Below, piece after piece: positions 3,244 to 16,736 of a stretch of 32,653 nucleotides of DNA. Position numbers and translations under genes: made by a program. The DNA is from a virus (lineage: Duplodnaviria; Heunggongvirae; Uroviricota; Caudoviricetes): IMG/VR virus record IMGVR_UViG_2541047739_000007, one strand, 5' to 3'. Within the stretch, counting starts at the first letter, position 1; every line of letters begins with the position of its first letter. The notes under the pieces were generated by a model, which saw nothing but the letters and a program-made list of their open reading frames with translations, ran no database searches and was not told where the DNA came from.

Positions 3244-3665
3244 CCTCGCGCATACAGCCGGGCAGTGACGTCATCGTCTGCGCGGAAATGGACGAACAGT
3301 GGGGCTATGTCGGGGCTAAATCGCGCCAGCGCTGGCTGTTTTACGCGTATGACAGGCTCCGGAAGACGGTTGTTGCGCACGTATTCGGTGAACGCACTAT
3401 GGCGACGCTGGGGCGTCTTATGAGCCTGCTGTCACCCTTTGACGTGGTGATATGGATGACGGATGGCTGGCCGCTGTATGAATCCCGCCTGAAGGGAAAG
3501 CTGCACGTAATCAGCAAGCGATATACGCAGCGAATTGAGCGGCATAACCTGAATCTGAGGCAGCACCTGGCACGGCTGGGACGGAAGTCGCTGTCGTTCT
3601 CAAAATCGGTGGAGCTGCATGACAAAGTCATCGGGCATTATCTGAACATAAAACACTATCAATAA
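3162..3665 (+). CDS. insB: IS1 InsB reading frame (expressed as InsAB' transposase via -1 frameshift at A6C, 3219-3225)
   Basis: 167-aa frame ...[28 protein letters not shown]... recognised as IS1 InsB; TTAAAAAAC slippery run present. Confidence 0.95.
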
Positions 3666-3689: not shown

Positions 3690-4379
3690 ATTTAAATTCA
3701 AATGCCACTGGCATAATGTCTTTGGTCTTCGCTTCGACAGACTCCATCAGGGAGCGTTTGCCGCTGAAGTCATTATCTTCAAAATCAGCGGTCTGGTTTG
3801 CTTCAATCGTGATTTTACGGACTGCCGCAGCCGCTTTTGTTGCCTGAATAGCGTCACCATTAGCATCAAAGCCCACAAGGTAGTCGGCCCAGTCTTCGAT
3901 CCATTCTGCCAGTGACTTCTGGGAGTTACGCTCGCCGTTAACAGACAACAGAGCAGAGAACGGTGCTGTCTTTTTCAGTTTGAGAGTGGCAGTGTTATCT
4001 GCGTGACCTGGCTCATCAATAGTACCCAGGTTAAGCACACTGACGGCACGCATATTATCGGCATCGATAAAGCAGCGGGTGCCTTCATCTGCAAGATCTT
4101 TAGAATAACGGGTAAAATCATCGATGCTGGCAGTGGAAAGTGCACCACGGAAACGGAAGCGATTTAAATTAAATTTTTCCAGATCATGAATGCGGAAATT
4201 CTCAGGCAATGCCACAGCATCGGCACCAATCTTACTGATAATTTCATTAACACCCTGAGCAGAAATAAGGGCATGGATTTGATTAATTGCGGTTGCGTCT
4301 AAGTTCTGAGACATAATAAGTCCTCACTATATAAAGATATTCAGTGATGAGATAAATAATCAGTTTATTACGAACGATA

Positions 4380-11633: not shown

Positions 11634-12629
11634 GTGACCGTGAGAGCACTACTGACCCCTGAAATTGCCCCGCGTATGGGGATCGTATTGTTCAGGCCAG
11701 GTTCAGAGCTGATGCCCCTGTTTATGCAGGGGCGTGTCCTGCTGGAGCCTGAGCCGGAGCGTTATTCATCTTTCGCCAGTGGTGCCGTTCCGGCGGCATC
11801 ACAACCGCTGGCGGATGATCCTGCCGTTCGGGCCGTGTTCCGCCATGAGGCAGTGATCCGTCGTGCTGGTGGCGTGGAATGTCTTGAAAGCTGGTTACTT
11901 CGTGAAAAAGGCTGCCAGTGGCCTCATTCCGGATGGCACAGCGAGAACATGACCACAATGCGACACGCTCCGGGTGCAATCCGTCTGTGCTGGCACTGCG
12001 ATAACCAGCTGCGCGATCAGTTCACGGAACGGCTGGAATCAATGGCAACGGATAACTGTGCCCGCTGGGTGTTGTCTGTTGTGCGTCGGGATCTCGGTTT
12101 TGATGACAGTCACGTTGTGACAATGCCGGAACTGTGCTGGTGGCTGATTCGTAATGACCTGGCGGATGCCTTACCGGAAAGTGCAGCCCGTAAGGCACTG
12201 AGATTACCGAAGCCTGTTGTGCCGTCTGTCACCCGGGAAAGTGACCTTGTGCCTTCGGTTCCTGCCACCAGCATCATCCAGGATAAAGCGAAAAAGGTGC
12301 TGGCGCTGAAAGTGGATCCGGAGTCGCCGGAGTCTTTTATGTTACGCCCAAAACGTCGCCGCTGGGTTAATGAAAAGTACACGCGCTGGGTTAAGACGCA
12401 GCCGTGCGCATGTTGTGGAAAGCCTGCTGATGATCCCCACCACCTGATAGGCCACGGTCAGGGGGGAATGGGTACAAAAGCGCATGACCTCTTCGTGTTG
12501 CCTTTGTGCAGAAAGCATCACGACGAGCTGCATGCGGATACCGTGGCATTTGAAGAGAAGTATGGCTCCCAGCTGGAGCTGATATTTCGTTTTATCGATC
12601 GCGCACTGGCGATTGGTGTGCTGGCCTGA
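11634..12629 (+). CDS. DUF968-like protein with C-terminal HNH-like Cys/His motif
   Basis: 331-aa ORF (GTG start); C-terminus [18 protein letters not shown]...[10 protein letters not shown]. Confidence 0.55.
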
Positions 12630-12646
12630 TTTTGTGGAGAAAGTTA

Positions 12647-13030
12647 ATGCGTGATATTCAGATGGTTCTTGAACGTTGGGGAGCGTGGGCGGCTAATAAT
12701 CATGAAGATGTGACCTGGTCGTCCATTGCCGCCGGTTTTAAGGGATTAATTCCTTCAAAAGTAAAATCTCGCCCGCAATGTTGTGACGATGACGCGATGA
12801 TCATTTGCGGGTGCATGGCCCGTCTGAAAAAGAACAACAGCGATTTACACGATTTATTAGTAGATTATTATGTATGTGGTATGACATTCATGTCACTGGC
12901 AAGTAAGCATTGCTGCTCGGATGGTTATATCGGGAAAAGGTTACAGAAGGCTGAGGGCATAATTGAAGGGATGTTAATGGCATTAGATATCCGGTTAGAT
13001 ATGGATATCGTTGCTAATAATTCTAATTGA
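12647..13030 (+). CDS. Late-gene antiterminator, Q-like
   Basis: Start [11 protein letters not shown] with GGAGA SD; Cys-rich ([12 protein letters not shown]); position between nin-type genes and the lysis cassette. Confidence 0.55.
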
Positions 13031-13049
13031 TATGCAATTGTTTACTAAA

Positions 13050-13080
13050 AGTTATTAAAAATGGGGCGTGGAAACGCCCC
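13050..13080 (-). terminator. Candidate intrinsic terminator, minus strand, downstream of the porin gene
   Basis: GGGGCGT-GGAA-ACGCCCC hairpin followed on the minus strand by AUUUUUAAU. Confidence 0.4.
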
Positions 13081-13171
13081 CAAAATAAAGGGTAATATAT
13101 AACAGAAGGTTTATATAGTAAGAAGCAAGGTAGTGCTTCTAAAGGAAGTGGCTTGAGGGCTCCACTTATAT

Positions 13172-13207
13172 GTTGCGGAGGCAAAGCCTCCCGCAACATA
13201 TCTTTTT
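13172..13207 (+). terminator. Candidate intrinsic terminator, plus strand, downstream of Q
   Basis: About 10-bp stem (GTTGCGGAGG / CCTCCCGCAAC, one bulge) with CAAAG loop, then a T5 run. Confidence 0.5.
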
Positions 13208-13218
13208 CGTAAGTCAGA

Positions 13219-14301
13219 TTAGAACTGATAAACCAGACCTACAGCGACGATGTCGTCGGTATCAATACCAGCTGTTTTGGTAAACTTACTATCGTCAATT
13301 AAGTTGATTTTGTAATCAACAAAAGTGGACATGTTTTTATTAAAGTAGTAAGTAGCACCGACATCGACATACTTGACTAAGTCTCGGTCACCATGAACAC
13401 CAAGGTCTTTACCTTTTGACTGAAGGTAAGCAACAGATGGACGCAGACCGAAGTCAAACTGATATTGTGCTACTGCTTCAAAGTTTTGTGCTTTGTTTGC
13501 AATATGGTTATTACCAAAAACGGTCATATTCTGAGTTTCAGAATATGTGGTAGCCAGATAGATATTGTTCGCATCATATTTCAGGCCTGCAGCCCATACT
13601 TCCGCATTTTTGCCGGAGGCATTGAATTTGCTCTTACCATAGGCGACCTGACCGTCAGTGCGATCTGATTTAGCATAGGTTGCACCCACGCCGAATCCTT
13701 CATACTCATAAGTAGTGGAGAAACCGAAACCATCACCATTGGCTTCAGTTACGTCAGTGCGGTCATTTTTACCCTGATACTGAGCAGCAAAGTTCAGGCC
13801 ATCGACCAGACCAAAGAAGTCGTTGTTACGATAAGTTGCAACACCAGTAGTGCGACCAGTCATGAACACATCTGTTTGGGTCCAGGTATCACCACCGAAT
13901 TCTGGCAGGACGTCAGTCCACGCACCGATGTCGTATGCTACACCGTAGTTACGGCCGTAATCGATTGAGCCGTAATCACCAAATTTCAGGCCTGCAAATG
14001 CAAGACGGGTTTTGTCTTTGGAAGAACCTTGAGATTCAGCACGGTTGCCTTTGAATTCATATTCCCACTGACCGAAACCAGTCAGTTGATCGTTGATTTG
14101 GGTTTCACCTTTGAAGCCAAGACGGGCATAAGTAGTATCACCATCATCTGCATCATTAGAGGAGAAGTAGTGCTTGGCATTAACTTTCCCGTATAGATCC
14201 AGCTTGTTACTGTCTTTATTATAAATTTCAGCTGCCTGAGCAGACATCGCCATCAGTACTGATGCAGCTACAGCAGAAATTGCCACTGTTAATTTTTTCA
14301 T
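13219..14301 (-). CDS. nmpC: OmpC/OmpF-family outer-membrane porin (prophage-borne NmpC/Lc type)
   Basis: 360 aa; signal peptide [23 protein letters not shown]; porin C-terminus ...VGLVYQF; on the opposite strand between Q and the lysis genes. Confidence 0.9.
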
Positions 14302-14728
14302 TGTACGCCCTTTTTTTTGAACTATTATTAAAAAATGATGTCACTGCGCGATAAATATTCATCTAATCAATGCGATTATTTCAAGATGTAAGTTTTAGTT
14401 TCTCATTTAATTTGTGAAGTAGATCTCTATTTTTATCTAAACCTTTTCTATCTAATCCTATTCATGGCTCTTGTTTGAACGAAAATAAATCTATTAGCTA
14501 ATTTATATTAATGGCACTTATTTATAAGCGATCTATAATTCTTTAGCTTAATTTAAACAAGCTAAAAATAACATCGGAAATTATTCATTGGTTATTTGTT
14601 GAAGTTTTCTTATGTATTTGTGGTGGTGTTTTGAACACTCGGTGGCATTCTCACAAATATCATTTAGTAGTTTACGTACGTAAAAAATTGGTTATGCTGT
14701 TAAGAGTGGTTACTTCGTCACACAGCTT

Positions 14729-14761
14729 AAACCCGCCGTCGAGCGGGTTTTTCCATTTTTT
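14729..14761 (+). terminator. Intrinsic terminator about 130 bp upstream of the holin (candidate tR')
   Basis: AAACCCGC-CGTCGA-GCGGGTTT hairpin followed by a U-rich tract. Confidence 0.55.
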
Positions 14762-14890
14762 GAGTCTCGATATTAGCTGATAACCCAATACCTGAGTTAT
14801 TCACTGACTCCGAATCTGTTACGTTTCTGCCTTTATTGCGATACGTAGTATCCCCTTAATTTACACCCGCTTTGTCTGCGAGGTGGGGTT

Positions 14891-15106
14891 ATGAAATCCA
14901 TGGATAAGTTAACAACGGGTGTCGCCTATGGCACCTCAGCAGGTAGTGCCGGATACTGGTTTTTACAGCTGCTAGATAAAGTCACGCCCTCACAGTGGGC
15001 GGCAATTGGAGTGCTGGGTAGCCTGGTATTTGGCCTGCTGACGTACCTGACAAACCTTTATTTCAAGATTAAAGAAGATAAGCGCAAGGCTGCGAGAGGT
15101 GGATAA
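14891..15106 (+). CDS. Class II holin (phage 21 S-type pinholin)
   Basis: 71 aa; two TM segments ([17 protein letters not shown]), charged C-terminus; followed by a SAR endolysin. Confidence 0.85.
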
Positions 15107-15603
15107 TGCCTCCATCATTACGAAAAGCTGTTGCTGCTGCTATTGGTGGCGGGGCTATTGCTATAGCATCTGTGTTAATCACTGGCCCAAGTGGTAACGA
15201 TGGTCTGGAAGGTGTGAGACATAATCCTTACAAAGACATAGTTGGTGTATGGACTGTATGTTACGGGCATACAGGAAAAGACATCATTCCCGGTAAAACG
15301 TATACCGAAGCAGAGTGCAAAGCCCTCCTGAATAAAGACCTTGCCACTGTCGCCAGACAAATTAACCCGTACATCAAAGTCGATATACCGGAAACAACGC
15401 GCGGCGCTCTTTACTCGTTCGTCTACAACGTGGGTGCTGGCAATTTCAGAACATCGACGCTTCTTCGCAAAATCAACCAGGGCGATATCAAAGGCGCATG
15501 TGACCAGCTACGTCGCTGGACATACGCTGGCGGTAAGCAATGGAAAGGGCTGATGACTCGCCGTGAGATTGAGCGTGAAGTCTGTTTGTGGGGGCAGCAA
15601 TGA
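15106..15603 (+). CDS. SAR endolysin (lysozyme, GH24 / T4-lysozyme-like)
   Basis: 165 aa; N-terminal signal-anchor-release helix rich in G/A ([20 protein letters not shown]); catalytic E...D...T region; start overlaps the holin stop. Confidence 0.85.
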
Positions 15604-16037
15604 GCAGGTTAACCGCGATTATCTCCGCTCTGGTTATCTGCATCATCGTCTGTCTGTCATGGGCTGTTAATCATTACCGTGATAACGCCATTACCTATAA
15701 AGAACAGCGCGATAAAGCCACGTACATCATCGCTGACATGCAGAAGCGTCAACGTGACGTAGCAGAACTCGATGCCAGATATACAAAGGAGCTTGCTGAT
15801 GCTAACGCGACTATCGAAAGTCTCCGTGCTGATGTTTCTGCTGGGCGTAAGCGCCTGCAAGTCGCCGCCACCTGTGCAAAGTCAACGACCGGAGCCAGCG
15901 GCATGGGCGATGGAGAAAGCCCAGGACTTACAGCAGATGCTGAACTCAATTATTACCGTCTCCGAAGTGGAATCGACAAGATAACCGCGCAGGTTAACTA
16001 CCTGCAGGAATACATCAGGACGCAATGCCTGAATTAA
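15600..16037 (+). CDS. Spanin, inner-membrane subunit (Rz)
   Basis: Start overlaps the endolysin stop (ATGA); N-terminal TM helix followed by coiled-coil. Confidence 0.8.
15799..15984 (+). CDS. Spanin, outer-membrane lipoprotein subunit (Rz1), embedded in the +1 frame of Rz
   Basis: [20 protein letters not shown] lipoprotein signal with lipobox Cys, proline-rich mature part; entirely within Rz. Confidence 0.7.
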
Positions 16038-16069
16038 TTTTTTTGCAAATCACAAAGTCCATTTAATGA

Positions 16070-16091
16070 GCCTCGCGATGCGGGGCTTTTT
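16070..16091 (+). terminator. Intrinsic terminator after the lysis cassette
   Basis: GCCUCGC-GAU-GCGGGGC hairpin (one G-U pair) plus UUUUU. Confidence 0.6.
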
Positions 16092-16097
16092 GCAATA

Positions 16098-16123
16098 AAT
16101 GCGTACCGCAACGCATGTTTTTT
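16098..16123 (+). terminator. Second tandem intrinsic terminator
   Basis: ATGCGT-ACCGCA-ACGCAT hairpin plus GTTTTTT. Confidence 0.5.
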
Positions 16124-16238
16124 ACACCGAACCTGCCCCTTTGGAATGGGCCTTTGAGGATACCAGTTAGTGCTGGCGAGCCTCGGTGGGCTGGTTTCCT
16201 GTGCGGCAAAGGTTCATTTCAAAGAGTAGGTACACGCT

Positions 16239-16736
16239 ATGAAATCATTAACCCTCTTCAATCAACCAATTCGTATCGGTGAAGATGGCATGATCTGCCT
16301 CACTGATATGTGGAAAGCCAGTGGTAAAAGTGAATCTGAATCGCCTTACCACTACCTGCGAAACAAGCAGACCAAAGAGTTCTTAGCCGAGCTGGAGAAA
16401 AACCACGAATCTGTGGTTTTTACTGAGCGCGGTGTACACGGTGGAACATATGGCGGGAAGTTTGTTGCTTACGATTATGCGGCTTGGTTAAACCCCGGGT
16501 TCAAGTACGCGGCCTATAAAGTCCTCGATGACTACTTCACCGGAGAACTTCAGCATCGCAACAGCTTAAGTGCGCAGCTCAACATGAAATGTCATGAGTT
16601 TGACCAGAAGAAAGACATGGCGAGCTTCTGCGGACAAGGGCTGGCAGCATGGCGCTATACGAAGCCAGTGTTGGTCGCTGAGATTAACTCCCTGGCTAAC
16701 CAGCTGCAGATTACGATCCCCGGGCTTCCGGGATGA
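16239..16736 (+). CDS. KilA-N domain protein
   Basis: 165 aa; ...DGMICLTDMWKASGKSESESPYHYLRNKQTKEFLAELEK... matches the KilA-N pattern. Confidence 0.6.
   Translation: MKSLTLFNQPIRIGEDGMICLTDMWKASGKSESESPYHYLRNKQTKEFLAELEKNHESVVFTERGVHGGTYGGKFVAYDYAAWLNPGFKYAAYKVLDDYFTGELQHRNSLSAQLNMKCHEFDQKKDMASFCGQGLAAWRYTKPVLVAEINSLANQLQITIPGLPG

Follow-up and report, generated by a model that had tools for sequence, protein, structure and literature searches.

A Q-controlled late promoter followed by an early terminator is an ordinary element, of a kind already known. In phage λ, the PR'-qut-tR' region and its 6S RNA embody the basic logic: a short transcript is terminated unless Q modifies RNA polymerase near the promoter. 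The terminated λ RNA is 194 nt long, and λ Q belongs to a different family from Pfam PF06530. Phage 21, whose Q is a member of PF06530, carries a comparable layout in annotated form, and its record lists a −35 element, QBE, −10 element, TSS, SDPE, and a terminator at +3..+50. A further example comes from the Stx phages. The record of VT2-Sakai annotates a ‘putative late promoter’, ‘Q-utilization’, and a ‘rho-independent terminator’, and Sy et al. 2020 (PMC7547250) used dRNA-seq to map where Sakai PR' transcription starts and Term-seq to map the 3' end, which lies 258 nt beyond it. Finally, the lysis operon of DLP12 in E. coli K-12 was described in a later DLP12 paper as being under a phage Q-type antiterminator, RpoE, and Hha.

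Here, we analyzed a 32,653-nt stretch of DNA from a virus of the class Caudoviricetes (hereafter, the window). We consider it highly probable that positions 14668–14761 are the Q-dependent late control module (pR' and tR') of a lambdoid phage. The features of the locus are the following:

12647–13030, plus strand: antiterminator Q gene (127 aa; PF06530), of the QuuD/Q933 subgroup of the phage 21 Q family
~13007–14667 (approximate), no strand assigned: porin cassette between Q and pR', in place of the 86-bp Q tail found next to pR' in Sakai
13053–13080, minus strand: intrinsic terminator GGGGCGTTTCCACGCCCC + ATTTTT (terminator scan; fold of −13.8 kcal/mol)
13168–13207, plus strand: second hairpin (13168–13201) with CTTTTT to 13207 (−21.9 kcal/mol, z = −6.7)
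13219–14301, minus strand: porin gene (NmpC/Lc/OmpD-like, 360 aa; PF00267, E = 1.9e-151; porin annotation in related phages)
14323–14328, plus strand: −10 hexamer TATTAT of an upstream promoter in the porin leader region, start at ~A14335 (K-12 Cappable-seq)
14671–14676, plus strand: −35 hexamer TTTACG of pR', with a 16-nt spacer to the −10
14671–14684 (−35 to −22), plus strand: candidate Q-binding element, a perfect 14-bp dyad TTTACGTACGTAAA with an A tract, overlapping the −35 hexamer
14693–14698, plus strand: −10 hexamer TATGCT of pR', aligned with the TATCAT of the late promoter annotated in Sakai
14699–14721, plus strand: conserved block around and after +1, GTTAAGAGTGGTTAC...GTCAC (module variants)
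14705, plus strand: start (+1) of pR', an A (Sakai-homologous nucleotide; K-12 start in identical sequence)
14729–14761, plus strand: intrinsic terminator tR' (scan, fold, Sakai homology, family recurrence)
14762–14890, plus strand: untranslated leader of the late transcript, reaching the holin ribosome-binding site (scan; fold z = −1.6)
14891–15106, plus strand: first late gene, an S21-type pinholin with dual starts M1/M4 (PF04971, E = 2e-35)
15106–15603, plus strand: SAR endolysin (PF00959) after the pinholin, followed by spanins

The locus among its relatives

Q lies upstream of pR' on the same strand and matches PF06530 over its full length (E = 6.7e-54), with no other Pfam family matched. 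It is 81% identical to the Q of VT2-Sakai/933W, the two C-termini diverging past residue 120, and it matches the solved Q21 structures 6p18/6jnx (phmmer, E = 4e-8). Phage 21 has the same Q family and the same type of lysis genes (84% DNA identity with those of the window), as well as the same layout and RNA size; its Q is only ~25–33% identical to that of the window, and its promoter DNA shows no homology. λ likewise lacks sequence homology to the window module.

The Stx phages are related to the window at the level of DNA. Homology between the window and Sakai is confined to 12647–12979 and 14668–14752, and homology to the ev245 Q stops at 13006. The second of the two Sakai stretches is the late control module, homologous to that of VT2-Sakai/933W over 85 nt (78% identity, E = 3e-13): the hexamers coincide exactly with the annotated ones, and the first VT2-Sakai terminator is aligned with the window hairpin at 14729–14750. 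Both share the TTTACG −35, the 16-nt spacer, a TAnnnT −10, an identical AAGAGTGGTTAC start region, and a CCCGC/GCGGG hairpin. The surroundings differ on either side. The Q gene of Stx phages runs into the promoter at its end (distance −17), whereas a 1.66-kb porin cassette lies between the two in the window; and a second Stx-phage terminator at +258, which defines the StxS RNA and is followed by tRNA genes and stx, is absent from the window. Along the same lines, the 74-nt StxS sequence has no homology in the window, Sakai homology stopping at 14752, and no tRNA genes were found in 12500–16500, the holin following tR' after 130 nt.

The order of Q, reverse-strand porin, and S21-type holin is shared with DLP12 of K-12 (qsr', quuD-nmpC-essD) and with phage PA-2 (lc porin), and phage 434B uses this region as a working late-control and lysis block. 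In DLP12, the module sequence is identical to that of the window; the K-12 porin is broken by IS5, whereas the window porin is intact. The pR' module carries no annotation in RefSeq K-12 or in the 434B record, and it is present in 2656 of the 5426 complete genomes of E. coli, among them K-12, with no annotated feature among the matches listed. The porin–holin intergenic region is matched by 360 phage records, among which the sampled Stx-phage matches span the module only, right after Q. In the loci compared, the module is always the final element ahead of the lysis genes. Querying IMG/VR with the Q protein returned near-identical loci only; diversity was supplied by a DNA pattern search of IMG/VR and phage records, from which 83 distinct module variants were drawn.

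The promoter, its start site, and the candidate Q site

The TTTACG-N16-TATGCT promoter of the original prediction is present exactly at 14671–14698. Its hexamers match the consensus at 4/6 and 4/6 positions (8/12), below the 9/12 threshold of our promoter scanner; pR' adjoins AT-rich DNA (25–28% G+C in 14300–14700), and the scanned region holds four promoter-like sites against 7.9 expected. Judged by consensus, pR' does not exceed chance; its significance is drawn from homology, conservation, and published start-site data, and not from the motif match. The prediction had called the promoter assignment weak, which holds for the motif by itself and no longer applies once the comparative evidence is added, as this makes the assignment strong. 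Among the 83 variants, −11A is conserved in 100%, −7T in 99%, and −12T in 90%, all three positions sitting outside the search pattern used to gather the variants, while the inner positions of the −10 hexamer vary.

Start-site data from two systems converge on one nucleotide. The Sakai start, obtained by counting the 258 nt upstream from the final U of the second terminator, falls at position 1538 of our Sakai locus (L001), 7 nt past TATCAT, and is aligned with A14705. K-12 coordinates in U00096.2 were converted with a 777-nt shift to NC_000913.3, which we take to be correct from the revision history; the shift's sole support is that both mapped K-12 starts then land on an A, 7 nt past a TAnnnT hexamer. 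In the accessible part of the K-12 Cappable-seq table, a plus-strand TSS is listed at 576,452 with a score of 1.7, close to the lowest scores in that part of the table. With the assumed shift, it corresponds to position 3730 of our K-12 locus (L086) and, in identical sequence, to A14705. A ~50-nt terminated RNA may be under-counted in Cappable-seq-type libraries. The Term-seq and SMRT-Cappable-seq supplements of Adams 2021 hold no entry for the locus among the entries listed. The site is a σ70 promoter with a real transcription start at A14705.

Overlapping the −35 hexamer is the dyad that we regard as the candidate Q-binding site. With up to two mismatches allowed, it occurs once in the window. 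Its Sakai counterpart is TTTACGATCGTAAA, and the sequence of the type B dyad is ACGCGTACGCAAA. Each dyad type pairs with one Q subgroup in 164/164 loci (A, 114/114; B, 18/18; C, 32/32), which are related loci with linked elements; the pairing holds at every Q-to-module distance in the set (−34 to 3009 bp), and different dyad types have hairpin variants in common. The arrangement differs from that of phage 21, where QBE21 is a direct repeat (ATTGAGCA AATGAGCA) between the −35 and −10, whereas the window candidate is a dyad over the −35.

The block at 14699–14721, around and after +1, would be the likely site of promoter-proximal pausing and Q engagement. Its AGTGGTT(A/T/C)C portion is invariant but falls within the search pattern, and since the pattern fixed most of the block, the invariance is partly circular; −6G is invariant though outside the pattern. 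Free position N15 is C or U only, both able to pair with G, and RNA +2..+17 can fold as a small GUGG/UCAC hairpin. As a sigma-dependent pause element, no conserved TAnnnT was found in the initial transcribed region of the module variants, in which TAnnnT-like candidates vary between members (TACTTC in the window, TACATT in Sakai). The phage 21 SDPE, TAAGCTG (+2..+8), similarly has no clear counterpart in the window.

The terminator, the short RNA, and a proposed mechanism

The clean terminator predicted at 14729–14761 is confirmed, and the holin ATG (14891) lies 130 bp after 14761. The terminator scan gives its hairpin (14729–14750) as AAACCCGC-CGTCGA-GCGGGTTT, with eight pairs (five G-C) and a 6-nt loop, followed by TTCCATTTTTT up to 14761 (a tail listed as UUCCAUUUUUU). 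The folding energy of the isolated hairpin is −11.7 to −12 kcal/mol; for the predicted 56-nt RNA, the MFE is −13.9 kcal/mol (z = −2.1 versus shuffles). Terminator-like sites in the scanned region number 12, against 4.8 ± 2.0 expected. The terminated RNA predicted from pR' is ~48–57 nt, as opposed to 194 nt in λ; a size of ~50 nt is normal for the Q21 family, because the phage 21 late terminator lies at +3..+50.

Two other readings of this stretch were rejected. An ORF at 14631–14780 (49 aa, TTG start) is not taken as a small protein because relatives show 1-nt loop indels and unrelated upstream sequence. An Rfam search of 12500–15200 returned nothing near the gathering threshold, and the best match over the module, Trp_leader (20.2 bits versus 41, E = 0.7), is a chance terminator resemblance.

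A hairpin with a U tract recurs at the tR' position in 54 of 74 distinct variants, versus 7.3 ± 2.3 in dinucleotide shuffles (hairpins of −7 kcal/mol or stronger, first U of the tract at +42..+57), a count that rests on per-sequence folds of related, non-independent sequences. The stems differ among variants: CCCGC/GCGGG, CCTCGC/GCGGGG, CCGCCAA/TTGGTGG, and CCCTGCC/GGCGGGG. As RNAalifold found no doubly compensated pair in a MAFFT alignment of 33 variants, we claim no covariation, only recurrence with different stems.

How completely this hairpin stops transcription bears on another interpretation, which we regard as unlikely: the promoter is real, and the hairpin at 14729–14750 is a pause or leaky site, or part of Q engagement, with silencing achieved by a weak promoter, Rho, or RNA decay. 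The homologous Sakai hairpin, spanning +27..+49, is read through at least partly, because the mapped terminated RNA is 258 nt and ends at the second terminator. Tandem double terminators are common in many relatives, a stem-mismatch variant (GCTGG) occurs in 26 of the fetched loci, the U tract of the window is broken by CC (UUUUUCC versus UUUUUUU in the Sakai homologue), and DLP12 papers report physiological effects of basal lysis-gene expression. Set against these points, the hairpin and U tract are kept in place with different stems across the family, the phage 21 terminator at the equivalent place is the annotated, published late terminator, and no further terminator precedes the holin of the window, the scan of 14762–14890 having found no second one. 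Termination at tR' may nonetheless be leaky, because the Sakai homologue is leaky, the U tract is poorer, and no second terminator precedes the holin.

Beyond tR', the late leader (14762–14890) shares 73.5% identity with its counterpart in Shigella phage SfII, which stands ahead of a different holin, and has 17 nt more than that of K-12, near 14845–14861.

If tR' is the late terminator, as we prefer, the module would work in three steps. (i) Initiation: σ70 RNA polymerase would start at A14705 from TTTACG-N16-TATGCT. (ii) Termination: without Q, the transcript would stop at the hairpin and U tract of 14729–14761, yielding an RNA of ~50 nt, a state that would silence the lysis genes (holin, endolysin, and spanins) together with the genes that follow them. 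(iii) Antitermination: Q, made from the early operon, would bind beside or over the promoter, likely at the dyad from −35 to −22, and engage polymerase while the latter is held within the conserved block that is transcribed first (AGTGGTTAC...); it would then travel with the polymerase and block formation of the terminator hairpin, as the Q21 structures show, allowing read-through into the late operon. The sequence features, the homology, the conservation across the family of the −10 and of the hairpin with its U tract, and the starts mapped in identical or homologous sequence are observed. We infer that Q binds the dyad, that polymerase pauses near the promoter, how efficiently the transcript terminates, and that read-through depends on Q. 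Comparison with Sakai, DLP12, and phage 21 thus bears out the original prediction of a pR'/tR' pair that makes a short RNA unless Q acts, with the Q-dependent step as its inferred part.

The upstream promoter, the porin cassette, and implications

A second mapped start lies 370 nt upstream of that of pR'. Among the K-12 Cappable-seq entries listed, the TSS at 576,081 (U00096.2) scores 90; it corresponds to L086 3359 and to window position 14335. The upstream promoter is located inside the porin cassette, and its transcripts run into the terminator at 14729–14750. A sigma-E-like motif, GAACTA-N16-TCACT (14319–14345), is a candidate for the published DLP12 promoter; TATTAT at 14323–14328 fits a start at 14335 better. 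The best consensus match of the region, ATGGCA-N17-TATAAT at 14511–14539 (10/12), was set aside, as the accessible K-12 entries include no start between the two mapped ones.

It is conceivable, though quite improbable, that the lysis genes are driven mainly by this strong upstream promoter, the hairpin at 14729–14750 attenuating a longer transcript and the promoter at 14671–14698 being minor, with no special role. The K-12 scores (90 versus 1.7 at pR' in the accessible entries) point that way, and so does the DLP12 literature, which reports RpoE control and seems to place the lysis-cassette +1 ~355–370 nt upstream of the pR' start. The later DLP12 paper numbers a construct ‘−121 to +650’ from the start site given by Rueggeberg et al. 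2015; the forward primer of this construct corresponds to L086 3254, which would put +1 near window position 14350. This placement uses the forward primer only, because the reverse primer has no K-12 match within three mismatches. However, the upstream promoter is absent from the Stx phages, SfII, mEp390, mEp460, and PhiR5_1, all of which have the module directly before the late genes, and the two promoters are not mutually exclusive.

The Q-to-pR' gap in the window is 1.64 kb and contains the reverse-strand porin gene, so that the promoter is not directly after Q; gaps in many relatives range from 0.6 to 3.0 kb. Along with the porin gene, the cassette brings terminators and a promoter region of its own, and the minus-strand terminator at 13053–13080 is probably the 3' end of the porin transcript. 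Late control had been predicted to lie downstream of the porin, and the position of the conserved module past the cassette supports this; the arrangement arises because a 1.66-kb opposite-strand cassette is inserted between Q and pR'.

The plus-strand hairpin with CTTTTT, 140 nt past the Q stop codon, raises the question of a Q-adjacent promoter. Originally noted as a terminator at 13172–13207 and an alternative tR', it is real as a hairpin (missed by our scanner because of a bulge in the stem), but its role as tR' does not stand: it has no promoter module in front and occurs only with the porin cassette. Specifically, 13031–13170 contains no promoter-like site and no homology to or copy of the module, and the segment 13025–13225 is found only in porin-carrying phages (the porin is present in all 36 phage records that contain this segment). 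As part of the porin cassette, the second hairpin probably serves to stop transcripts coming out of Q. A pR' directly after Q, with 13172–13207 as tR' and Q-modified polymerase crossing the porin antisense to reach the holin, would agree with the strength of that hairpin and with the 933W-like phages, in which pR' abuts Q; we judge it very improbable, given the empty and cassette-bound segment after Q, the annotation in mEp390 of an analogous terminator pair at the Q-proximal end of a reverse-strand insert, and the conserved module downstream. Scarcely credible is a chance match of promoter-like hexamers in AT-rich intergenic DNA beside the terminator of an unrelated transcript, in keeping as this would be with an 8/12 match and with fewer promoter-like sites than expected, in the face of the homology, the conservation of −11A and −7T, starts at the exact nucleotide in two systems, and the constant position before the late genes.

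That the late control module with pR' at 14671–14698 produces a leader of ~50 nt allows a further thought. The RNA opens with a 5' GUGG...(C/U)CAC hairpin, continues with a single-stranded ACAGCUUAA stretch, and closes with the terminator hairpin and its U tail. It is rather improbable that it is more than a by-product of control, either as a trans-acting small RNA, for which there is a precedent in StxS, processed out of the homologous transcript of Stx phages, or through a Q933-specific RNA/DNA signal in its 5' block. If the 5' block is a Q933-type signal, those Q proteins would recognize a dyad-symmetric site, unlike the direct repeat of Q21.

Our understanding of Q antitermination is unchanged by this locus. 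The DLP12 lysis genes have been linked to biofilm formation. They have also been linked to outer-membrane vesicle production, and an annotated pR', start, and terminator would aid the reading of work on these genes. The location of pR' shows which genes belong to the late operon, and it explains how separate expression of the porin in the lysogen can come about, as its cassette occupies the one interval whose transcription is required by neither the early operon nor the late one.

The probable late promoter-terminator module and its relatives

The window belongs to a lambdoid phage, 99.9% identical to Escherichia phage PhiR49_1 over 12600-15150. RusA, a KilA-N protein, and a DUF968/HNH protein precede the late antiterminator gene Q, an arrangement continued as listed below and shared with phage PA-2 and with the DLP12 (qsr') prophage of E. 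coli K-12 (quuD-nmpC-essD-rrrD).

Features between Q and the lysozyme gene (coordinates, strand, description)
12647-13030, plus, Q (PF06530, E = 6.7e-54)
13080-13063, minus, terminator (scan and fold)
13168-13207, plus, hairpin with CTTTTT (fold -21.9 kcal/mol, z = -6.7)
13219-14301, minus, porin gene (PF00267)
14323-14335, plus, upstream start with -10 hexamer TATTAT at 14323-14328 (K-12 576,081 in U00096.2, Cappable-seq score 90)
14671-14676, plus, -35 hexamer TTTACG of pR'
14693-14698, plus, -10 hexamer TATGCT of pR', after a 16-nt spacer
14729-14750, plus, hairpin AAACCCGC-CGTCGA-GCGGGTTT, then TTCCATTTTTT up to 14761
14891-15106, plus, S21-type holin gene (PF04971)
15106-15603, lysozyme gene, with the spanins next

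The original prediction placed a late promoter and a terminator upstream of the holin, and it is correct: the hexamers, spacer, hairpin, U tract, and holin distance are all present, and hexamers and hairpin align base for base with features annotated in phage VT2-Sakai. The hairpin has eight pairs, five of them G-C in the terminator scan, folds at about -12 kcal/mol, and its terminator ends (14761) 130 nt before the holin ATG. On motif alone, the promoter claim is unjustified. The pR' hexamers match the consensus at 8/12 positions, under the threshold of the promoter scanner, next to DNA of 25-28% G+C, and the scan found four promoter-like sites in the region against 7.9 expected, i.e., no enrichment.

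The porin-holin intergenic query matched 360 phage records. Among the Stx-phage records sampled, the match covers window 14668-14752 only and lies directly 3' of Q. The VT2-Sakai record (AP000422) annotates a ‘putative late promoter’ (TTTACG-N16-TATCAT), a ‘putative Q-utilization’ element, and a ‘possible rho-independent terminator’; the window and Sakai Q proteins share 81% identity across 120 residues. With its homologous sequence and closely related Q, the window module (pR', start region, and terminator tR', 14668-14761) belongs to the 933W-type PR' family, but has neither the second terminator nor the StxS segment and tRNA genes of that family. By analogy, it would work like the PR'/tR' cassettes of phages 21 and lambda.

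In Sakai, dRNA-seq located the PR' start, and Term-seq placed the end of the terminated RNA 258 nt past it (Sy, Lan and Tree 2020; PMC7547250). Counting back 258 nt from the final U of the second terminator annotated in Sakai (position 1795 of the locus) leads to A1538, which lies 7 nt past TATCAT and aligns to window A14705. The homologous Sakai hairpin, at +27 to +49 with seven U, is at least partly read through, since the 258-nt RNA exists. Many relatives carry two tandem terminators; the window has one, with its U tract broken by CC, and its termination may be leaky. The 130-nt untranslated leader that separates terminator and holin (14762-14885) is 73.5% identical to that of Shigella phage SfII (L084, 5340-5467), which stands before a different, larger holin; the window leader lacks an ATG and does not fold significantly (z = -1.6).

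Start sites in K-12

The module of K-12 MG1655 shows zero differences from the window; its hexamers lie at NC_000913.3 577,195-577,222, predicting +1 at 577,229. The shift between U00096.2 and NC_000913.3 at this locus we take to be 777 nt. Between nmpC and essD, the Cappable-seq data of Ettwiller et al. 2016 (PMC4782308; U00096.2) list only two starts on the plus strand, at 576,081 (score 90.2) and 576,452 (score 1.7, enrichment 4.8). By these scores, the upstream start is ~50 times stronger than the pR' start. Adding the 777 nt to 576,452 gives exactly the predicted pR' +1 nucleotide, and each tabulated start is then an A located 7 nt past a TAnnnT hexamer, which supports the shift; a one-base error in it would leave the start-site conclusion unchanged.

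The stronger start corresponds to window ~14335 and is directed toward the holin, at 34 nt from the start codon of the porin. Its transcripts would also have to meet the 14729 terminator, and would measure ~420 nt to 14729-14761. Cappable-seq-type libraries may under-count short RNAs. The DLP12 literature puts the lysis operon under a phage Q-type antiterminator, RpoE, and Hha, and describes a later construct as ‘-121 to +650’. The forward primer of this construct maps to position 3254 of the DLP12 locus, bringing the published +1 near window 14350, not 14705; these papers seem to place the lysis-cassette +1 roughly at the 14323-14335 start.

The top consensus match in the region is ATGGCA-N17-TATAAT at 14511-14539 (plus strand, 10/12), in DNA of 25% G+C. 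It is probably due to chance, since the K-12 Cappable-seq table lists no start at the equivalent position.

Cargo between Q and the late promoter

By its textbook definition, the late promoter adjoins Q; in the window, it does not. Homology between window and Sakai covers window 12647-12979 and 14668-14752, two stretches separated by 86 bp in Sakai versus 1688 bp in the window; the Sakai 86 bp encodes a Q tail overlapping the -35 of PR'. Because homology to the Q of a third phage stops at 13006 and the Q C-termini diverge past residue 120, sequence comparison delimits the porin cassette at ~13007-14667. It comprises a new seven-codon Q tail, a pair of convergent terminators, the porin gene, and the AT-rich region upstream of it. 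The last seven codons of window Q (within 12980-13030) read IVANNSN, unlike the Sakai tail, which has 24 residues; the left end of the cassette therefore supplied a new, shorter Q C-terminus.

The minus-strand terminator at 13080-13063 is likely the end of the porin transcript. A second plus-strand hairpin, at 13172-13207, had been offered as an alternative tR' directly after Q. The hairpin exists (13168-13201, then CTTTTT), but this alternative is rejected: neither the promoter scan nor the module search found a promoter or module copy before it, and the segment 13025-13225 is found only with the porin (36/36 phages). The hairpin probably keeps early-operon transcription from entering the porin gene in antisense. 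The two terminators (13053-13207), located between Q and the porin stop codon, are convergent, each lying past the other, so that the transcripts would overlap by ~150 nt; mEp390 has an analogous annotated pair at the end of its reverse-strand insert nearest Q. The untranslated tail of the porin presumably corresponds to the ipeX RNA of nmpC/lc. IpeX targets ompC. An Rfam search yielded no hit.

Separation of Q from the promoter is common. Among the matches listed, 49 of the 54 distinct architectures with gaps >300 bp have their largest ORF on the opposite (minus) strand. The gap is a recurrent insertion site for oppositely transcribed cargo, as in the window (13007-14667) and at L084 (SfII), L088, L089, L090, L117, L125, L159, and other loci. 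The cargo is a porin in the window and elsewhere includes proteins with matches to candidate anti-phage defence families of PADLOC: PDC-S20 (E = 1e-177), an OLD/Gabija-like ATPase (HEC-04), and an HNH protein (PDC-M68A).

In phage Lambda_ev245 (L093, 3360-4270), Q is 85% identical to window Q, and no module copy was found in the 3 kb downstream. Its Q is followed by a terminator whose stem is similar to that of Sakai tR' (GCCAGCCTCCCC...GGCTGG plus U tract) and then by a reverse-strand lipocalin gene.

Family conservation and the candidate Q-binding element

An exact-pattern scan of IMG/VR with the start-region block as the pattern recovered at least 120 loci; with phage records, these represent at least 91 distinct 150-nt variants, or at least 83 when counted over a different segment. 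Outside the search pattern, -12T (90%), -11A (100%), -7T (99%), and -6G (100%) are conserved in the 83 distinct variants among the matches listed, where the inner -10 bases vary (TATGCT, TATCGT, TAATCT, TACTGT, TATCAT, and others). The variants thus carry, at the sequence level, a sigma-70 -10 signature. A hairpin that folds at -7 kcal/mol or below and runs straight into a U tract, with the tract starting at +42 to +46 or +52 to +57, occurs in 54 of the 74 distinct transcribed variants among the matches listed, versus 7.3 +/- 2.3 in dinucleotide shuffles. Stems include CCCGC/GCGGG, CCTCGC/GCGGGG, CCGCCAA/TTGGTGG, and CCCTGCC/GGCGGGG, with freely variable loops. RNAalifold on the MAFFT alignment of these related sequences found no doubly compensated pair; we describe a predicted hairpin and U tract that recur across the family and claim no formal covariation. 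Among the L094-L213 matches listed, 26 loci have GCTGG instead of GCGGG in the 3' arm (~window 14745), a common natural variant of the window-type module whose stem mismatch makes the hairpin fail the -7 kcal/mol test; a possible consequence is leakier expression of late genes in those prophages.

The same module is present in 49% of complete E. coli genomes, and the matches listed have no feature annotated at its position. The kind of element, the annotation of its VT2-Sakai homologue, and its start site (data of 2016 and 2020) stand in the public record.

The structure and mechanism of phage 21 Q are known, and window Q is in the same family. The phage 21 record (OL657228) annotates -35, Q-binding element (QBE; ATTGAGCA AATGAGCA), -10, start site, sigma-dependent pause element (+2 to +8), and terminator (+3 to +50). 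Because of this last annotation, a terminated RNA of ~50 nt is the norm in this family. The order of parts in the window appears to be the same. In the most probable mechanism, sigma-70 polymerase would initiate at window A14705, a step shown by proxy. Without Q, the transcript would stop at 14752-14761, giving an RNA of ~50 nt, as sequence and the phage 21 analogy suggest. By analogy with Q21, Q from the early operon would bind the dyad over the -35, encounter polymerase held up within the conserved AGTGGTTAC... block, and render it terminator-resistant, so that it could transcribe the late operon, with the holin, endolysin, and spanin genes first. The family comparison yielded no nameable conserved -10-like pause element in the initial transcribed region.

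The dyad-symmetric element, followed by an A tract, lies at about -35 to -20 (window 14671-14688, its only occurrence there) and at the same position in L001 (Sakai), L084, L088-L092, and L094-L213. It falls into at least six discrete sequence types: TTTACG(TA/AT)CGTAAA (window and Sakai), ACGCGTACGCAAA, GCGGTCCGCA, TTCGTTACGAA, TGGAATTCCA, and TGTyATrACA. Each of the three large types is paired with one upstream Q subgroup (114/114, 18/18, and 32/32; 164/164 loci listed), over Q-to-module distances of -34 to 3009 bp and with hairpin variants shared across types. The dyad is a candidate QBE, a reading we infer from this pairing, since physical linkage and shared descent could give the same pattern. 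If it is the Q-binding element, Q in these phages would recognize a dyad-symmetric site, whereas Q21 binds a direct repeat.
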